Part shown: positions 425-9,628 of the stretch, in pieces
Layout of the letters: each line of letters starts with the position of its first letter
Position numbering within the stretch: position 1 is the first letter of the stretch
Source of the DNA: a virus
Taxonomy: Duplodnaviria > Heunggongvirae > Uroviricota > Caudoviricetes
IMG/VR virus record: IMGVR_UViG_2711768072_000012
Length of the DNA stretch: 10,030 bases
Reading direction: 5' to 3' (one strand)
Program-made: the position numbers and the translations under genes
Notes under the pieces: model-generated
Told to the model about the DNA's origin: nothing
Databases searched by the model: none
The model's input: the letters and a program-made list of their open reading frames with translations, nothing else

Positions 425-763
425 CATTTTTTTACGGCGTTCATATTCGTTAATATTTATGAAGCCTGTTGCCAGAAGCAGTTCGTTAATTTCATGGTTG
501 TTTGGCTGTTTCTGGCTCTTTGAGCTGGGATCTTCCACTTCTTTTTCTGCAAATTGTTTTGCTGTATCCTCTGTGCCATGGATATTTAAAGCTGTATCTG
601 AAAACAGCCCAGTAAACGCATCGCGCACATTACGAGCCATATTATCAGTGTCTTTTTTTGTTACCGATTCCAATTCAAGTTCGTTCAGACGATGACGAAG
701 TGTGTGTGCTGCAATCTCCTGGATTGAAGGAGGTAAATCTTTAAATTCCATCGTCAACCTCAT
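413..763 (-). CDS. hypothetical acidic protein (112-116 aa), second gene of leftward operon
   Basis: ORF coupled to the upstream 81-aa ORF. An alternative ATG at 751 has a better SD (GAGG, 6-nt spacer), giving MEFKDL... No motif recognised. Confidence 0.4.
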   Translation of the reverse strand: MRLTMEFKDLPPSIQEIAAHTLRHRLNELELESVTKKDTDNMARNVRDAFTGLFSDTALNIHGTEDTAKQFAEKEVEDPSSKSQKQPNNHEINELLLATGFININEYERRKKMLSD

Positions 764-1008
764 CAGTCAGTGTTTCTTGCTAACCAGCGATGCGCGCCAG
801 CTGCGGTTTTAAACGTTTTACTTTTGGTATACGTCATCGCGGTGAAGGTGCCGTCCTGGTTAGGGAACACACCGCATACCAGAGATTCGTTGTTGCCAAG
901 ATCGATAGTATCCATGCTGACCTCATTTCCCCTTAACGCCGGGGTAGCGGAACAAAAACCTGCTGCATAGTTATTAAAGTTGAACCCTGCCGTCATGTTC
1001 TTACGCAT
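763..1008 (-). CDS. hypothetical protein (81 aa), first gene of leftward operon
   Basis: ORF lies downstream of the predicted leftward promoter (~1097-1125). Its stop overlaps the start of the next minus-strand ORF (TGATG at 761-765), suggesting translational coupling. Weak SD, no motif recognised. Confidence 0.35.
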   Translation of the reverse strand: MRKNMTAGFNFNNYAAGFCSATPALRGNEVSMDTIDLGNNESLVCGVFPNQDGTFTAMTYTKSKTFKTAAGAHRWLARNTD

Positions 1009-1096: not shown

Positions 1097-1138
1097 ACTA
1101 TAGGAAATGCCTAATTACTTGTCAATAGGCTATGCCTA
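1097..1138 (-). promoter_or_regulatory. PL-like leftward promoter with two repressor operator palindromes
   Basis: Minus strand reads TTGACA (plus 1120-1125), a 17-nt spacer, then TATAGT (plus 1097-1102). Palindrome TAGGC-TAT-GCCTA at 1126-1138 and degenerate TAGG-N5-CCTA at 1101-1113. The minus strand of this segment nearly matches the plus strand of 1761-1795. Confidence 0.45.
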
Positions 1139-1197
1139 ATAATTTGGGCGCGACCTAATAGGTGATGGTTTGTGGGAGAGGTAGTAGGAGTTAACTA

Positions 1198-1219
1198 ACG
1201 GGAACTAGGAATTTCCCGT
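1198..1219 (-). other. hairpin just downstream of racR stop (possible weak terminator)
   Basis: Inverted repeat ACGGGAA (1198-1204) / TTCCCGT (1213-1219) with an 8-nt loop, 14 nt past the racR stop. No U-tract follows. Confidence 0.2.
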
Positions 1220-1233
1220 CGGACCATATAAGT

Positions 1234-1710
1234 TTAAGTTCCTGTCTTGGTGATGTTCTGGCTTTTCCGTTTTGATTCTTGATTTTTCAGATAGTTAGCT
1301 ACCTTCATTTCCATTGCGGCAATGTAGGCGCGAACGTCATGATCAACCCAACTAGGCTCCGTAGCATTTCCAGATAAGAGGAAAGCCACAATTGCTCTTT
1401 TTTCATCAGAGGCGGCTTGATAAAGGCTGTTTATGTCTAAAAGTTCACTTTTTGTATCTGAAGTGGATGGGGTTGGTATGGGGTATTCGTTAAGCCCCCA
1501 ATGCTCTGGACCAACCACATCAGAAAAGAAACGCCATAGTTCTGGAAGTTTGTCTTTACTTATCGAACCTTTCTTAATCCAGTCATGGATTGATGGTGGT
1601 TGGACTTTGAAATGACGTGCGATTTCCGCCTTTGATTTGACGGCTCCTGATGCAATTTTTTTGTTAATGGCCTGCTCTATCGCTCGGCCTAAGTCTTTAC
1701 CACTAAGCAT
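1234..1710 (-). CDS. racR: Rac prophage repressor RacR-like (CI-like HTH repressor, 158 aa)
   Basis: 158-aa ORF divergent from a Cro-like gene. The N-terminal part (DLGRAIEQAINKKIASGAVKSKAEIARHFKVQPPSIHDWIKKGSI) looks like an HTH. Length and sequence match my recollection of E. coli RacR, and the gene sits in the immunity position between mirrored operator/promoter sets. Confidence 0.8.
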   Translation of the reverse strand: MLSGKDLGRAIEQAINKKIASGAVKSKAEIARHFKVQPPSIHDWIKKGSISKDKLPELWRFFSDVVGPEHWGLNEYPIPTPSTSDTKSELLDINSLYQAASDEKRAIVAFLLSGNATEPSWVDHDVRAYIAAMEMKVANYLKNQESKRKSQNITKTGT

Positions 1711-1739
1711 TGCTTAATAGTCTCCTATGCGCATCGCGT

Positions 1740-1807
1740 TAGGCAATCCCTACTCTCGATGTATTAGGCATAGCCTATTGACAATTGTATTAGGCTAAGC
1801 CTAATAT
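1740..1807 (+). promoter_or_regulatory. OR/PR-like region: three operator palindromes plus rightward promoter for ydaS
   Basis: TAGGC-N3-GCCTA palindromes at 1765-1777 and 1791-1803, and a degenerate copy TAGGC-AAT-CCCTA at 1740-1752, spaced about 25 bp apart. TTGACA at 1778-1783 with TAATAT at 1802-1807 (18-nt spacer). The racR promoter presumably lies here on the minus strand. Confidence 0.5.
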
Positions 1808-1834: not shown

Positions 1835-2158
1835 ATGAAAAAAGATAACTATTCATTCAAACGAGCTTGTGCTGTTGTCGGTGGGCAATCAGCAATGGCT
1901 AGGCTTTTAGGTGTATCTCCTCCAAGCGTAAATCAATGGATCAAAGGTGTACGTCAGTTGCCTGCTGAGAGATGTCCTGCGATTGAACGAGCAACAAAAG
2001 GTGGTGTCCTGTGTGAAGAACTTCGTCCTGATGTTGATTGGACATACTTACGACGCTCGTCATGTTATTCGCAGAATATGTCGATGAAGCAACCAAATGA
2101 CGAAAACGATCATACCCGAAGCATCAAGAGGCAAATGATTCATGAAAATCAAACATGA
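1835..2158 (+). CDS. ydaS: YdaS-like Cro-type HTH protein
   Basis: ATG at 1835 with GGAG at 1823-1826; the track's upstream start at 1814 is GTG. HTH-like segment SAMARLLGVSPPSVNQWIKGVRQLP. First gene rightward of the repressor, as in Rac racR/ydaS. Confidence 0.75.
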   Translation: MKKDNYSFKRACAVVGGQSAMARLLGVSPPSVNQWIKGVRQLPAERCPAIERATKGGVLCEELRPDVDWTYLRRSSCYSQNMSMKQPNDENDHTRSIKRQMIHENQT

Positions 2159-2567
2159 GCACATCCGCATGGCGATGAATGCTTGGGCATACCCTGATGG
2201 TGAGAAAGTTCCTGCAGCTGAAATAGCCCGGACTTATTTCGAACTGGGGATGACGTTCCCTGAACTGTACGACGACAGCCATCCGGAAGCCCTGGCCCGT
2301 AATACACAGAAAATTTTCCGTTGGCTGGATAAAGACACCCCTGATGCTGTTGAAAAAATTCAGGCTCTGTTACCGGCGATCGAAAAGGCAATGCCGCCTC
2401 TGCTGGTGGCCCGTATGCGCAGTCACAGCTCTGAGTATTACCGGGAGATTGTCGAACGGCGGGATCGGCTGGTGAAGGATGTCGACGATTTTGTTGCGTC
2501 AGCGGTTGTTTTGTATGACCAGATGAATCGCGGCGGCCCGGCAGGGAATGCTGTGGTGATGCACTAA
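2142..2567 (+). CDS. ydaT: YdaT-like protein (141 aa)
   Basis: ORF overlaps the ydaS 3' end by 17 nt, indicating a coupled operon. Position and size match the Rac ydaT slot. No catalytic motif recognised. Confidence 0.7.
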   Translation: MKIKHEHIRMAMNAWAYPDGEKVPAAEIARTYFELGMTFPELYDDSHPEALARNTQKIFRWLDKDTPDAVEKIQALLPAIEKAMPPLLVARMRSHSSEYYREIVERRDRLVKDVDDFVASAVVLYDQMNRGGPAGNAVVMH

Positions 2568-2589: not shown

Positions 2590-3552
2590 ATGAGCAGCAA
2601 GCTTCATGGTCTTGTCTGGGAAGGGTGCGCCTTCACCGGCATGATCTTATCCAGGGTGGCGGTTATGGCCCGTCTTGCAGACTACAGCAATGACGAGGGC
2701 GTGTCATGGCCTGCCATTGAAACTATCCGGCGTCAGATCGGTGCAAGAAGTGAATCCACAGTGAAATCGGCTATTGCAGAACTGGCGAAAGAGGGCTGGC
2801 TGACGAAGGAAGAGCGTAAGGTCGGTGGGCGTAATGTAAGCAATATCTATCGACTTAATGTGGAAAAACTCGAAGCAGCTGCGGCGGCGGCGCGTGAGTC
2901 ATATAAACCGAAAAGAAAAATTAGCCCGGCAAAAAATGACCCGTTAACAGTTGACCCGTCAAATATTGACCCCTCAACGGTTGACCCGTCAAATTTTGAT
3001 GGATCAACTGTTGATAAAAAACTGCCGATTAGGGGGGCGATGATTGACCCCGATCCGTCAGTATTAAAACCTGATCCGTCAGATAAAAGATCTTCTTGTC
3101 CGGACGCTTCGCAACCGGACCCGCAGACGGCTGAACAGGATTTTTTAACCCGACACCCTGACGCGGTTGTGTTCAGTGCGAAAAAACGCCAGTGGGGAAG
3201 TCAGGAAGATTTGGTGTGCGCACAGTGGATCTGGGGACGAATCGTGAGTCTTTACGAGCAGGCGGCCAGCTATGATGGCGAGATCACTAGACCGAAAGAA
3301 CCCAACTGGACAGCATGGGCCAATGACGTTCGCACAATGCGGATGCTGGATGGCAGAACTCACAGACAAATTTGTGAAATGTTTGGGCGTCTCCAGCGGG
3401 ATTCGTTCTGGGTAAAAAACATCATGAGTCCGGCAAAACTCCGGGAAAAATGGGATGAACTGGTTATCCGCCTGGGGCGTTCGCCTGCGCAGCGTTGCGT
3501 GAATCACATTTCTGAACCGGACACTGAAATACCGCCGGGATTCAGGGGGTGA
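2590..3552 (+). CDS. ydaU: YdaU-like replication initiator (lambda O-like replisome organiser) carrying internal iterons
   Basis: N-terminal winged-helix-like region, then a repetitive DPxxx linker encoded by tandem 15-bp DNA repeats. Sits immediately upstream of a DnaC-like loader gene. ATG 2590 chosen over the track's GTG at 2575. Confidence 0.75.
   Translation: MSSKLHGLVWEGCAFTGMILSRVAVMARLADYSNDEGVSWPAIETIRRQIGARSESTVKSAIAELAKEGWLTKEERKVGGRNVSNIYRLNVEKLEAAAAAARESYKPKRKISPAKNDPLTVDPSNIDPSTVDPSNFDGSTVDKKLPIRGAMIDPDPSVLKPDPSDKRSSCPDASQPDPQTAEQDFLTRHPDAVVFSAKKRQWGSQEDLVCAQWIWGRIVSLYEQAASYDGEITRPKEPNWTAWANDVRTMRMLDGRTHRQICEMFGRLQRDSFWVKNIMSPAKLREKWDELVIRLGRSPAQRCVNHISEPDTEIPPGFRG
2936..3025. 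repeat. Six tandem 15-bp iterons (consensus tTGACCCGTCAAnnn): probable prophage origin of replication inside ydaU
   Basis: Units start at 2936, 2951, 2966, 2981, 2996 and 3011; the last two are degenerate. An A-rich tract and four GATC sites (3002, 3052, 3073, 3089) follow. This is analogous to lambda ori inside gene O. Confidence 0.6.
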
Positions 3553-3558
3553 CGTGTC

Positions 3559-4305
3559 ATGAAAAACATTGCGGCAGTTGGGGTTCTTGAACGTATTCGC
3601 AGACTTGCACCACAGGGGTCGGTTCCACCGTACCGGACGGTGGAGGAGTGGCGGGAATGGCAACTTGCTGAAGGACGAAAACGCAGCGAGGAGATTAACC
3701 GCCAGAATCGCCAGTTGCGGGTGGAAAAAATCCTGAATCGTTCGGGCATCCAGCCTCTGCACAGCAAATGCTCGTTTGCAAATTATCAGGTGCAGAACGA
3801 CGGGCAAAAATACGCGCTGAGCCAGGCCAAATCCATAGCTGACGAACTGATGACCGGGTGCACGAATTTTGTGTTCAGCAGTAAAACCGGCACCGGGAAA
3901 AATCACCTTGCAGCGGCGATGGGCAACCGGCTGATGGTGAAGGGGCGCAGCGTGATTATCGTCACCGTGTCTGACGTCATGAGCGTGTTGCATGACAGCT
4001 ACGACAACGGCAAATCCGGGGAAAAATTTTTACAGGAGCTTTGCGGGGTTGATTTGCTGGTCCTGGATGAAATAGGCGTTCAGCGGGAGACGAAAAACGA
4101 GCAGGTGGTATTGCACCAGATAATTGATCGCCGGACAGCATCACTGTGCAGTGTCGGGATGTTAACAAACCTGAATCATGCCGCAATGAGTACGCTTCTT
4201 GGTGAGAGGATTATGGACCGCATGACCATGAACGGTGGTCGATGGGTGACATTTAACTGGGATAGCTGGCGTCCAAATGTCAGCAATATGAGGGTTGTGA
4301 AGTAA
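3559..4305 (+). CDS. ydaV: DnaC-like helicase loader (YdaV-like AAA+ ATPase)
   Basis: FSSKTGTGKNHLAAA and DLLVLDEIGVQRETKNEQVVLHQIIDRR align with the E. coli DnaC Walker A/B region as I recall it (FSGKPGTGKNHLAAA ... DLLVIDEIGVQ). ATG 3559 lies 6 nt after the ydaU stop. Confidence 0.85.
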   Translation: MKNIAAVGVLERIRRLAPQGSVPPYRTVEEWREWQLAEGRKRSEEINRQNRQLRVEKILNRSGIQPLHSKCSFANYQVQNDGQKYALSQAKSIADELMTGCTNFVFSSKTGTGKNHLAAAMGNRLMVKGRSVIIVTVSDVMSVLHDSYDNGKSGEKFLQELCGVDLLVLDEIGVQRETKNEQVVLHQIIDRRTASLCSVGMLTNLNHAAMSTLLGERIMDRMTMNGGRWVTFNWDSWRPNVSNMRVVK

Positions 4306-4326
4306 TTTTGTCCGGAGGAAATTTTA

Positions 4327-5097
4327 ATGGAAACCGTATCTGACGCACTGAAAGCACTGAAAAAAGCCTCTTCACATGTGGTGGCAGCTCGCCTTGGAAT
4401 CAGTCGTGAAGAGGCTGTCAACGAGCTGTGGGAACTCAAAAGAAATGGCGTCGTTGATAAAACTGGTCACACCTGGTTTCTGGCTGGCGAAGGTGAATCC
4501 CGGGTAACCGAAGAGCGGCCAGTAAAATCTGAAGCACAGGATATGCTGACCGGGGAGGTCGAACAAAAAGTTACCGCCGACATGATGATTGAGTTTATCG
4601 GTCAGGATGGGGCTAAAACGTGTGAGGAACTGGCGGGTAAGTTCGGTGTCAGTACTCGCAAGGTTGCTTCCACGCTGGCGGTGGTAACCGCAACGGGGCG
4701 GCTGGCACGCGTTAATCAGAACGGTAAATTTCGTTACTGCATGCCGGGCGATAATTTACCAGCAGAGCCGAAAGCCGCGCTGGTAACGGAAAGTGATGGT
4801 AAGGCCTTTCCTCAGCCAGCAGGTGCTGCGTTACCAGTCCGGGAAGCCGCAACACAGGAAAAAATTAAAACAGAAACTGTGGCGGACATTGTGCAGCCGT
4901 TGCCATCGTTTACCGAAACGCAAGCAGATGAGCTGATTTTTCCGTCCCTTCGCAGGGCAAACTTGGCGCTGCGCAGGGCGAAAAGTGATGTTCAGAAGTG
5001 GGAGCGAGTCTGCGCCGCGCTGCGGGAGCTGAACAAGCACCGGGATATTGTTCGACAGATTACTGATTCTTCCCGCCGTGTTGTATCGGAAAAGTGA
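4327..5097 (+). CDS. ydaW: YdaW-like prophage protein (256 aa)
   Basis: ORF follows ydaV in the Rac gene order. N-terminus METVSDALKALKKASSHVVAARLGISREEAVNELWELKRNG looks like a small winged-helix domain. Function unknown. Confidence 0.65.
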   Translation: METVSDALKALKKASSHVVAARLGISREEAVNELWELKRNGVVDKTGHTWFLAGEGESRVTEERPVKSEAQDMLTGEVEQKVTADMMIEFIGQDGAKTCEELAGKFGVSTRKVASTLAVVTATGRLARVNQNGKFRYCMPGDNLPAEPKAALVTESDGKAFPQPAGAALPVREAATQEKIKTETVADIVQPLPSFTETQADELIFPSLRRANLALRRAKSDVQKWERVCAALRELNKHRDIVRQITDSSRRVVSEK

Positions 5098-5702: not shown

Positions 5703-6341
5703 ATGAAGATGAAAAACATGTCTGAAGTGTTGACCCAAGAAAAGCTTATTTTTGTTGCCCAGAGACTAAAGGCCCTCGCGCAGTCAGGCCTGACCTATTC
5801 AAAAGACGTCTTTGACAAGGAACGCTATGAAGCCTTGCGTGAAATTGCCGCTGGACTGCTGAGTTCGCAGTTTGATATTAGCCGCAATGATTTGTTTCAT
5901 GTATCGGAAACGGGTTACGCGACGCCCAAAACAGATGTGCGTGCGTTTATCCTGCGTAATAATCGTATTCTGATGGTGAAAGAGGCTGCAGATGGATTAT
6001 GGAGTCTTCCTGGCGGATGGGCAGATGTTGGAGATACACCTTCTGAAGCTGTGCGTCGAGAGGTCGAAGAAGAAACCGGATTAAAAGTCAGAGTGACTAA
6101 ACTATTGGGAGTTTGGGATCGTAATCTTCACGGCCATCCGCCTTTACCCTGGCATGTTTACAAGCTGATTTTTCTCTGTGAAGAAGTAGGTGGCAGCCTG
6201 TCAATCAGCCATGAGTCACTCGATGCTGATTTTTTTGATGTCAACGACCTGCCTGAATTGTCGCTTTCAAGAATTGTGCCTGAGCAGATTGCTGTCAGCC
6301 TGAGAGTAGCGAAAGGTGATGAAAAAACATGGTTTGATTAA
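5703..6341 (+). CDS. NUDIX hydrolase with N-terminal extension
   Basis: Nudix box GGWADVGDTPSEAVRREVEEETGL fits Gx5[E/D]x7REUxEExGU with D at the first acidic position. An ~80-aa N-terminal domain precedes it. Start is ambiguous between ATG 5703, 5709 and 5718; SD is weak and the upstream region is AT-rich. Confidence 0.8.
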   Translation: MKMKNMSEVLTQEKLIFVAQRLKALAQSGLTYSKDVFDKERYEALREIAAGLLSSQFDISRNDLFHVSETGYATPKTDVRAFILRNNRILMVKEAADGLWSLPGGWADVGDTPSEAVRREVEEETGLKVRVTKLLGVWDRNLHGHPPLPWHVYKLIFLCEEVGGSLSISHESLDADFFDVNDLPELSLSRIVPEQIAVSLRVAKGDEKTWFD

Positions 6342-6370
6342 CTTTCTTCTGCAACCATTAAGGAATGGCA

Positions 6371-7009
6371 ATGATATTCAACGCTAAGGGTTTTTTATTC
6401 GATATGGACGGTACGCTGGTTGATTCAACAGCCGTAGTGGAAAGCGTCTGGAGAGATTTTTGTGCAGAATACGGTCTTGATACTCAGGCTGTGATTGCTT
6501 ACGCACACGGGCGGCAAACGATTGATACACTGACGCATTTTATTGGTGCAGGTGAGAAAACCAATAAAATCGCGGCCTCACTCGAAGAGGTTGAAATCAA
6601 CACGACAGAAGGCGTTACTGAAGTAAAGGGGGCCGCTGCACTCTTATCAAAACTGCCACCGGATAGCTGGGCACTTGTCACTTCTGCAGGCAGAATGCTT
6701 GCCGAAAACAGGATGAAAGCGGCTAATCTCCCCTTACCCATAGTAATGGTGTGTGCAGAAGATGTAATGACGGGAAAACCAAGTCCCGAGGGTTACATCA
6801 AAGCAGCTTTGGCTTTGGGCCTTGAGCCTGGTGAATGCGTGGTATTTGAGGATGCATCTGCGGGTATAAAAGCAGGGCTGGCAAGTGGAGCTTCGGTAAT
6901 AGCTGTTCAGCCTGACGCTCTGGGATCATCTGAAGCCCATGCCGTCAGCGAACTGTCTGACATTATGGTCAAGATTTCCGGAGAACGTTTCAATATCATC
7001 TGTGGTTAA
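6371..7009 (+). CDS. HAD-superfamily hydrolase (beta-phosphoglucomutase/phosphatase-like)
   Basis: HAD motifs: FDMDGTLVDS (motif I), VTSAG, TGKPSPEGY (Lys motif) and FEDASAGIKAGLASGA. ATG 6371 is preferred because AAGGA at 6360-6364 gives a 6-nt spacer; the track start is 6365. Lies 23-29 nt after the NUDIX stop. Confidence 0.8.
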   Translation: MIFNAKGFLFDMDGTLVDSTAVVESVWRDFCAEYGLDTQAVIAYAHGRQTIDTLTHFIGAGEKTNKIAASLEEVEINTTEGVTEVKGAAALLSKLPPDSWALVTSAGRMLAENRMKAANLPLPIVMVCAEDVMTGKPSPEGYIKAALALGLEPGECVVFEDASAGIKAGLASGASVIAVQPDALGSSEAHAVSELSDIMVKISGERFNIICG

Positions 7010-7398: not shown

Positions 7399-7439
7399 GG
7401 CTGCGGGTGCTTGAGGCTATCTGTCTCAGGCATGAACAC

Positions 7440-7530
7440 CAAAGGCAGATAGAGAAAAGCCCCAGTTAACATTACGCGTCCTGCAAGACGCTTAACATTA
7501 ATCTGAGGCCATATCTATGCTCTACACACG
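7440..7530 (-). ncRNA. sok: predicted Sok-like antisense RNA region (approximate bounds)
   Basis: Inferred only from hok/sok locus architecture: the antisense RNA is normally complementary to the mok leader and start. Minus strand around 7530-7560 has a weak TTGCCT-17-TAACCT promoter-like pair. Ends are not determined. Confidence 0.3.
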
Positions 7531-7729
7531 TAGGTTAGCCTCTTACGTGCCGAAAGGCAAGGAGAAGCAGGCTATGAAGCAGCAAAAGGCGATGCTAATC
7601 GCCCTGATCGTCATCTGTTTAACCGTCATTGTGACGGCACTGGTAACGAGGAAAGACCTCTGCGAGGTACGAATCCGAACCGGCCAGACGGAGGTCGCTG
7701 TCTTCACAGCTTACGAACCTGAGGAGTAA
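7517..7729 (+). CDS. mok: mok-like upstream reading frame, here in frame with hok
   Basis: ATG at 7517 opens a 70-codon frame that runs into and through hok in the same frame. The leader resembles the mok leader of hok/sok loci. Confidence 0.35.
   Translation: MLYTRRLASYVPKGKEKQAMKQQKAMLIALIVICLTVIVTALVTRKDLCEVRIRTGQTEVAVFTAYEPEE
7574..7729 (+). CDS. hok: Hok/Gef family type I toxin (51 aa)
   Basis: MKQQKAMLIALIVICLTVIVTALVTRKDLCEVRIRTGQTEVAVFTAYEPEE has the Hok TM segment and the conserved TRKxLCE...R.G..EVA.F.AYE pattern. By recollection it is closest to HokD/RelF. SD AAGGAG at 7559-7564 with a 9-nt spacer. Confidence 0.85.
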   Translation: MKQQKAMLIALIVICLTVIVTALVTRKDLCEVRIRTGQTEVAVFTAYEPEE

Positions 7730-8506: not shown

Positions 8507-9628
8507 GTGTTTAACGGTACTAATTTAAGACTTGCTCGTCTGTATCACGAGCTATCTCTGGAGCAGGTTGCTGAGAAGGTTGAAAAAACACGCCAGTATG
8601 TACAGCGACTGGAGTCTGGTTCAGCTACTCCATCCCCAGAGCTTATAAATAAATTAGCCGAGGTTTTGCGCGTGAAGCCCGCCTTTTTCGAAGGGCAGGA
8701 ACATTCTCCTGTTAATGAAGAGATTGTACATTTTCGTAAACGCGCCTCGACAAGGATGTCAACGAAGCTATCAACACTCGCTAAGGCTGAGTTTTATCGT
8801 CGTTTTATTGATGTATTTGAAGATAACCTTAATTTGTCACCTGTTCGATTTCCTGAATTTCGTGTCCATACACAAGAAGATATCGAGCGAGCGGCAGAAA
8901 AATGTCGTATTGAGTGGGGCTTAGGCTTTGGCCCAATTGAAAATATGACTCGCCTTGCCGAGAAACTTGGGGCGTTTGTTACTTCATTTGACTCCGTTTC
9001 GGATGAAGTAGATGCACTGTCTGTTCCTCTGCGAAGGCCTTTTATTGTTCGAAATACAGCTAAAAATTCACCTTGTAGGCAACGCTTTGATATTGCTCAT
9101 GAGGTTGCCCATTTGATTCTTCATGAAGGAATTTCTACTGGGGATAGATTAACTGAATCCCAGGCAAACCGTTTTGCCTCTGCTCTGTTGCTTCCCAGAA
9201 CGTCGATGGCGAAATATTTTCCAAGACCTGTGGGGGGGAGGATAAATTGGCAGGGACTAAGCCAATTTAAGTTGACATGGAAAGTAAGTAAGGCTGCCAT
9301 TGTTTACAGGGCTCATCAATTAGGACTTTTGACTGATGAGCAGTACAGAACTGCATTTATGGGGTTGAAACGGAAAGGGGAAGCTATTGATGAAAAAGAA
9401 GATTATCTAATCCCTCATGAGCGTCCTGAGTTATTCCGTCGGGCTTTATCGTTTTTATTTGAAGAGTTAGGATACGACCCACAGCGTATAGCTGATGAAA
9501 TGGATATAGAAGTGGACATTTTTTATGAGTTAGTAGGAGATGATCTTCCTGCGGTTCATGAACTGCCAGGAAGTGGTGATGTTGTTTCACTACAATCTTA
9601 CCGAACTCTTAGAGGCAAAATTCACTAG
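8507..9628 (+). CDS. XRE-family HTH fused to ImmA/IrrE-type (M78, COG2856-like) zinc metallopeptidase (373 aa)
   Basis: N-terminal HTH (LSLEQVAEKVEKTRQYVQRLESGSATPSPELINKLAEVL). Zinc-binding HEVAH in IAHEVAHLILHE followed by ESQANRFASALLLP, the typical ImmA/IrrE signature. GTG start at 8507 with GGGTG upstream. Confidence 0.85.
   Translation: MFNGTNLRLARLYHELSLEQVAEKVEKTRQYVQRLESGSATPSPELINKLAEVLRVKPAFFEGQEHSPVNEEIVHFRKRASTRMSTKLSTLAKAEFYRRFIDVFEDNLNLSPVRFPEFRVHTQEDIERAAEKCRIEWGLGFGPIENMTRLAEKLGAFVTSFDSVSDEVDALSVPLRRPFIVRNTAKNSPCRQRFDIAHEVAHLILHEGISTGDRLTESQANRFASALLLPRTSMAKYFPRPVGGRINWQGLSQFKLTWKVSKAAIVYRAHQLGLLTDEQYRTAFMGLKRKGEAIDEKEDYLIPHERPELFRRALSFLFEELGYDPQRIADEMDIEVDIFYELVGDDLPAVHELPGSGDVVSLQSYRTLRGKIH

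Follow-up and report, generated by a model that had tools for sequence, protein, structure and literature searches.

E. coli K-12 cannot do without RacR, the repressor that keeps toxic prophage genes silent, and publications on the K-12 Rac prophage describe a single cluster of sites for this repressor, in the intergenic region to the right of its gene. The stretch of viral DNA analysed here (the window, 10,030 nt in length) raises the question of what lies on the other side of racR. An initial annotation, made from the sequence itself, had proposed that the gene is flanked by mirrored operator and promoter modules, one directed leftward and one rightward, in a lambda-like OL/OR arrangement.

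The racR locus and the published right half of the switch

The locus belongs to a Rac-type lambdoid prophage of E. coli and forms its immunity region. Positions 1000-2200 of the window are 99.8% identical to many E. coli chromosomes in which racR, an HTH protein and a YdaT-family protein are annotated, and this identity bears out the initial assignment of the gene between the two modules as racR. The genes around the switch are the following:

763..1008, minus strand: first ORF downstream of the predicted leftward promoter PL, ydaF/ydaG-like (Pfam DUF1391, 9.4e-29; RefSeq annotation 763-915)
1234..1710, minus strand: racR, repressor gene, 158 aa (annotated racR loci at 99.8% identity; homologs named RacR)
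1835..2158, plus strand: ydaS-like cro analogue, gene 1 of the rightward operon (Pfam YdaS_toxin, 3.8e-30; P22_Cro, 1e-8)
2142..2567, plus strand: ydaT, cII analogue (Pfam YdaT_toxin)

A Pfam search of RacR returns no hit and no S24 domain. Downstream of ydaT lie replication-type genes with HTH_36 and IstB/DnaC-like domains. The ydaT start codon is spanned by a YdaT box, ATGATTCATGAAAATCAA at 2135-2152, identical to the box footprinted in K-12 (PMC11879457). Further right, the early region carries cargo-like genes, a NUDIX hydrolase (5703-6341) and a HAD hydrolase (6365-7009), followed by a hok/sok type I toxin-antitoxin module at 7405-7729, in which the sok RNA (Rfam, 7405-7579, 114.7 bits) overlaps a Hok/Gef ORF (7517-7729). 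A protein combining HTH_3 and Peptidase_M78 domains (ImmA/IrrE-like) is encoded at 8507-9628 and could be a second regulatory module.

The right half of the RacR switch has been characterised in K-12. RacR binds the 123-bp racR-ydaS intergenic region in EMSA, where three complexes form, and in ChIP-qPCR, and three repeats have been remarked on in this region (Krishnamurthi et al. 2017, PMC5700373). DNase I footprinting of the intergenic region led to the half-site ATTAGGC and the operator (T/A)TAGGC-n3-GCCTA(T/A), with O1 assigned to the ydaST promoter and O3 to the racR ATG, which it overlies (Wisniewska et al. 2022, PMC9638921). In the same study, O1 is protected at the lowest RacR concentration, the promoter PydaS (TTGACA/TAATAT) is established by primer extension and mutagenesis of the -10, and the racR mRNA is found to be mainly leaderless; YdaS is reported not to repress racR. 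A follow-up of 2023 counts four inverted repeats, reports a RacR octamer by size-exclusion chromatography, a measurement made without DNA, and proposes that one RacR dimer occupies each intergenic repeat; YdaS is reported to compete with RacR for the intergenic operators, and the RacR regulon, including the ydaFG operon, is called uncharacterised (PMC11014345). The right-hand RacR sites and the rightward promoter are already published for K-12 and are not new.

On the left, the published evidence concerns expression. Depletion of RacR raises ydaG, ydaF, kilR, ydaE, racC, recET and xis/int 40- to >100-fold (PMC6765115; PMC11014345; preprint 10.64898/2026.09.06.749655). Derepression of these leftward genes implies leftward transcription under RacR control. 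Conter et al. are said to have found in 1996 that kil expression is repressed in Rac lysogens, so that functional knowledge of a RacR-controlled leftward promoter may predate the present analysis. A left operator pair or promoter downstream of racR is mentioned nowhere in the Rac/RacR literature accessible to the analysis, and the annotation of NC_000913.3 shows no regulatory feature at the K-12 pair downstream of racR. The left-hand OL/PL half (1097-1138) is apparently undescribed so far.

Operators and promoters on both sides of racR

With at most one mismatch allowed, the window contains five TAGGC-N3-GCCTA palindromes, three of them perfect and two with a single mismatch. The chance expectation is 0.17 per window (200 dinucleotide-preserving shuffles), with a maximum of two and no shuffle reaching five. 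All five had been listed in the initial annotation and are present at the positions it gave; the list omitted a degenerate site at the racR ATG and a weak candidate on the left. From left to right, the sites and promoter hexamers are:

1097..1102, minus strand: PL -10, TATAGT, its first two bases being the last two of OL1 (consensus scan)
1101-1113: OL1, TAGGAAATGCCTA, one mismatch, covering the PL spacer and running into the -10
1120..1125, minus strand: PL -35, TTGACA, directly abutting OL2 (consensus scan)
1126-1138: OL2, TAGGCTATGCCTA, perfect, within a 23-nt inverted repeat shared with 1762-1784
1145-1157: candidate weak third left site, doubtful, TGGGCGCGACCTA, two mismatches, at 19-bp spacing from OL2
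1704-1716: OR4, TAAGCATTGCTTA, two mismatches, with the racR ATG inside its N3 spacer; the published K-12 operator O3
1740-1752: OR3, TAGGCAATCCCTA, one mismatch, in the racR promoter region
1765-1777: OR2, TAGGCATAGCCTA, perfect, abutting the PR -35
1778..1783, plus strand: PR (PydaS) -35, TTGACA (consensus scan; mapped in K-12, PMC9638921)
1791-1803: OR1, TAGGCTAAGCCTA, perfect, extending across the spacer and -10 of PR; the published operator O1
1802..1807, plus strand: PR -10, TAATAT (consensus scan; PMC9638921)

Measured from start to start, the two left palindromes are 25 bp apart and the three right-hand ones 25 and 26 bp, as against an earlier estimate of about 25 bp. Their flanks are A/T (aTTAGGC...GCCTAat), fitting the published (T/A)TAGGC-n3-GCCTA(T/A): the RacR site that had been predicted from the letters matches the operator footprinted by others on the right-hand side (PMC9638921). 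The mirror symmetry is equally exact at its core. Positions 1119-1141 and 1762-1784 form an inverted repeat of 23 nt with 100% complementarity, and in a local alignment the inverted similarity reaches ~1109-1141 against 1762-1795 past an indel of 1-2 nt.

In 950-1900, a scan against the consensus picks out two sigma-70-like promoters and no others, each inside an operator module, in keeping with the earlier claim of one TTGACA promoter in each direction associated with palindromes. On the minus strand, PL (1125..1097) reads TTGACA-17-TATAGT and matches the consensus at 11 of 12 positions; on the plus strand, PR (1778..1807) reads TTGACA-18-TAATAT and matches at 10 of 12. Both have the near-consensus hexamers and the 16-18 bp spacer of sigma-70 promoters, and PR coincides with PydaS as mapped by primer extension (PMC9638921), which settles the identity of the rightward promoter that had been predicted. 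The two modules share one geometry: one palindrome immediately precedes the -35, and the other spans the spacer, its last two bases doubling as the start of the -10. Between racR and PL, neither the consensus scan nor folding of the RNA from 1140-1245 (minus strand) reveals a convincing terminator; the fold contains a single 8-bp hairpin just past the stop codon, with no U tract and a z of -0.8. Rfam gives no match in 900-1900, sok being the only match in the whole window.

OL1 is off consensus at one half-site base, which is T in the window and, at the same position, A in K-12 (where the equivalent site is TAGGTAATGCCTA), and with this imperfect half-site its affinity may be lower. The site at 1145-1157 has a two-mismatch counterpart only in E. 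ruysiae, and shows three mismatches in K-12; judged by its sequence, it could be a low-affinity OL3 restricted to Escherichia. A stretch overlapping this weak site, ACCTAATAGGT (1155-1165), is kept between the window and K-12. A perfect 13-nt direct repeat, GGGTTGGTATGGG at 1081-1093 and 1470-1482, was also considered and is probably due to chance: its alignment score of 29 compares with a shuffle maximum of 30, and it is poorly kept in K-12. One copy lies at the predicted PL start, just 3' of the -10, and the other inside the linker-coding region of racR.

Conservation of the operator layout

The same two left and four right sites recur in the Rac prophage of K-12, the former between ydaG and racR (NC_000913.3, 1,419,630-1,419,667) and the latter between racR and ydaS, and the window sites at 1704-1803 correspond one-to-one to 4236-4335 of the K-12 locus (L001). 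The two RacR proteins are 92% identical, and the consensus, the PydaS hexamers and the site over the racR ATG are the same.

Alignment of the RacR protein retrieved 28 genome loci (169 kb) from Escherichia, Mixta, Morganella, Proteus, Klebsiella, Erwinia, Achromobacter, Burkholderia, Pigmentiphaga, Herbaspirillum and others. These hold 105 sites with at most one mismatch, against ~5 expected by chance: 68 are found in the 100 bp preceding the repressor ATG, 34 belong to downstream pairs 23-27 bp apart, and three are elsewhere. Of the 27 loci scanned, 17 have a PL module 62-2484 bp past the stop codon of the repressor gene; in the remaining 10, a downstream pair was not found within ~2.3-3 kb of flank. 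Every module found carries TTGACA on the strand of the repressor, immediately past the first palindrome, and the last two bases of the second begin a -10-like (TA)ATAT, TATAGT or TACTAT. In an alignment of 15 loci, the half-sites and hexamers are near 2 bits, and the N3 spacers, the N6 between the -35 and OL1 and both flanks are variable; TTGAC of the -35 is invariant, with A as the sixth base in 13 of the 15. OL1 is kept in the relatives as the promoter-distal member of the left pair. At the level of the aligned sequences, the conservation of the left module is the phylogenetic footprint that a unit of operators and promoter classically leaves.

On the right, the sites number four in Escherichia Rac-type loci (at -93, -67, -42 and -6) and three in other genera (-66, -41 and -6). 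The Escherichia arrangement includes an insertion of ~25 bp with one operator, which separates the PR -35 from the TAGG(G/A)ATTGCCTA site. OR3 is kept in relatives as TAGGAATTGCCTA at -41, and OR4 at -6 from the ATG in nearly all. The start codon of the repressor thus lies inside an operator N3 spacer in almost every relative (the -6 site of L003-L030), so that the half-site GCTTA is spelt by the invariant Met-Leu codons together with the base that opens codon 3, and the DNA is under coding and operator constraint at once. Across the relatives, RacR residues 1-73 hardly vary; the C-terminal part is variable.

Six betaproteobacterial prophages (L013, L018, L022, L023, L026 and L030) encode a RacR-type N-terminal domain joined to a Peptidase_S24 (LexA/CI-like) C-terminus. 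These S24-type relatives keep the TAGGC-N3-GCCTA OR and OL layout, and the enterobacterial RacR C-terminal domain is unrelated to theirs. From these sequences, the DNA-binding module and its operators seem to have been exchanged as a unit between cleavable and non-cleavable repressors. A contig binned as Candidatus Nanosynbacter (L005, JARKOR010000130.1) carries an E. coli-type racR locus at 92% identity with all six operators, and a scaffold binned as Alistipes senegalensis (L019, JAMPER010000001.1, 1.3 Mb) encodes a RacR-type N-terminal domain. Mis-binning or contamination is possible in both.

In a reverse test, viral contigs were scanned with the DNA module alone, which gave 80 loci. A RacR-type N-terminal domain is encoded in a fixed layout in 74 of them. 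Site centres lie at offsets of -87, -61, -36, +578 to 581 and +603 to 606 in the Escherichia-type viral loci, and at -60, -36 and 0, with a pair 1.2-2.2 kb downstream, in the others. The six exceptions include a locus cut at the contig end (L040) and a distant homolog (L087). The latter encodes a 218-aa S24 repressor (2738-3394, minus strand), has sites at 1592/1618 and 3388-3448, and places the repressor ATG inside a TAGGC-AAT-GCCTA site; tblastn does not detect its N-terminus as RacR-like, and by eye it follows the pattern LG..I....A..F....PS......L.K..LP.L..FF. The deposited phages vB_EcoS-683R6 and Klebsiella phage KpF5 have the same operator layout. The repressor of KpF5 is followed by an inserted DUF450 gene and only then, at a distance of 1.4 kb, by the left pair; the arrangement resembles the separation of lambda cI from PL by rexAB. 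The conservation that the initial annotation had set as a test of its palindromes is therefore found: both clusters are kept across the 28 genome loci, the 80 viral contigs and the two phages.

Proposed repression from the left operators

Very probably, the locus works as a Rac-type immunity switch in which RacR silences PR from OR and PL from OL. RacR dimers would recognise the 13-bp palindrome TAGGC-N3-GCCTA. On the right, RacR bound to OR1, over the PR spacer and -10, and to OR2, at the -35, would occlude RNA polymerase and keep ydaS-ydaT and the replication genes silent; bound to OR3 and OR4, over the racR promoters and the leaderless racR start, it would regulate its own synthesis. On the left, OL2/-35/OL1, a near-mirror copy of OR2/-35/OR1 placed ~95 bp past the racR stop, would overlie the near-consensus PL, and RacR on OL1 and OL2 is predicted to silence the leftward early operon, in K-12 ydaG/ydaF, kilR, racC, recET and xis/int. 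In K-12, the work of others has shown RacR binding and footprints on the right intergenic region, the PydaS start and repression; autoregulation of leaderless racR through OR3 and OR4 is partly shown. From sequence, conservation and the published expression data, we infer that PL is active, that RacR blocks it from OL1 and OL2 and that PL is the direct cause of the leftward derepression on RacR depletion. Part of this derepression could come about by indirect routes: YdaS/YdaT, excision of the prophage, or read-through out of racR.

A defined PL/OL would explain directly how kilR, recET and xis/int come to be derepressed 40- to 100-fold when RacR falls; the left pair would add two sites to models of RacR stoichiometry and make looping a hypothesis that can be tested. 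The advance is an incremental one: both the operator sequence and the right switch are known, and a left operator is expected by lambdoid phage biologists.

The likeness to lambda lies in the layout. The repressor gene stands between two operator clusters, each over a strong early promoter pointing away from it; the repressor and cro-like genes are divergent, with several operators over PR and the repressor promoter; and at the level of sequence a second cluster lies beyond the repressor gene, over the predicted leftward promoter. Two more features are shared with lambda: a leaderless repressor mRNA and, as reported for RacR, a repressor that forms octamers. Adjacent sites are 25-26 bp apart in the Rac-type region and ~24 bp apart in lambda. 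The operator itself differs, being a 13-bp palindrome unrelated in sequence to the lambda 17-mers, and so does the number of sites: instead of three operators per cluster there are two on the left, plus the doubtful third, and on the right four in Escherichia and three elsewhere. The lambda-like OL/OR reading of the initial annotation thus holds for the layout, but not for an OR of three sites in Escherichia. YdaS, unlike lambda Cro, is reported not to repress the repressor gene (PMC9638921). The RacR C-terminal domain is not an S24 peptidase and offers no RecA-driven autocleavage, so that induction cannot follow the lambda route.

A further parallel is the PaaR2/YdaS/YdaT switch of CP-933P in E. 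coli O157:H7, which has the same gene order, repressor and then ydaS-ydaT (PMC8630535). Its promoters are PR933P, PRM933P and PL933P, and an analogous PL/OL has been demonstrated there by reporter assay (Jurenas 2021, PMC8630535), which, by analogy, is a direct precedent for the left module. CP-933P differs in its repressor, PaaR2, in its GTTTAGTAA-type operator repeats, in a toxin-antitoxin pair between the repressor and PL, and in having three OL operators.

Other explanations of the left module have to be weighed against repression of PL by RacR. It might be a non-functional relic of a recent duplication of OR or of gene conversion from it, or a chance cluster. The 23-nt perfect identity of 1119-1141 and 1762-1784, which takes in OL2 and the -35, suggests sequence exchange between the OL and OR sides, recent in this lineage, and the OR of Escherichia has one operator more than that of other genera. 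However, the position, orientation and geometry of the module are kept from Enterobacterales to Burkholderiales while its spacers and flanks have diverged freely, which is the signature of selection and not of a recent copy, and with 0.17 sites expected per window a chance cluster fares no better; this explanation is very hard to credit. It is also improbable, though less so, that the left sites serve chiefly the Cro-like YdaS, or YdaT, instead of RacR. A Cro analogue shares the repressor operators in lambda and in CP-933P (PMC8630535), and the reported competition of YdaS with RacR for the intergenic operators (PMC11014345) points the same way. Against this, the left half-site is the sequence that RacR protects on the right, and over a wide taxonomic distance the motif is found together with the nearly invariant RacR-type N-terminal domain. 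There is no YdaT box (TTGATT-N6-AATCAA type) near PL, the sole match in the window being the distant one at 2135-2152, and binding of YdaS at the left sites would add to that of RacR, not replace it.

A further reading, compatible with promoter block by RacR, makes the left pair mainly an anchor for looping: a RacR octamer would bridge OL1-OL2 and OR1-OR2 over ~640 bp, tightening PR repression and aiding autoregulation at the racR start, as with lambda CI. This may well be so, although the chances fall somewhat short of even. It is favoured by the octamer seen on size-exclusion chromatography (PMC11014345), although that protein was without DNA, and by the presence of two strong pairs, one per side, with matching 25-26 bp geometry. 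The relatives with a RacR-type C-terminus (Mixta, Morganella, Proteus, Erwinia) have only three OR and two OL sites, so the idea of one octamer on four intergenic sites cannot be general, and a 2+2 bridge between OL1-OL2 and OR1-OR2 fits the site set of every relative. The distance between OL and OR is less helpful to looping: it ranges from ~0.6 to >3 kb, and is 639-642 bp among the Escherichia loci, with no phasing signal either way. More tentatively, the left pair may complete the set of sites to which the RacR octamer binds: RacR would repress through a ~640-bp OL-OR loop, not through four adjacent intergenic sites, and the operator set would have been reused across Proteobacteria by repressors exchanging C-terminal domains of the RacR and S24 types. 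Looping, if true, would turn the locus into a long-range switch in the style of lambda, but with an oligomerisation domain that is unrelated and non-cleavable.
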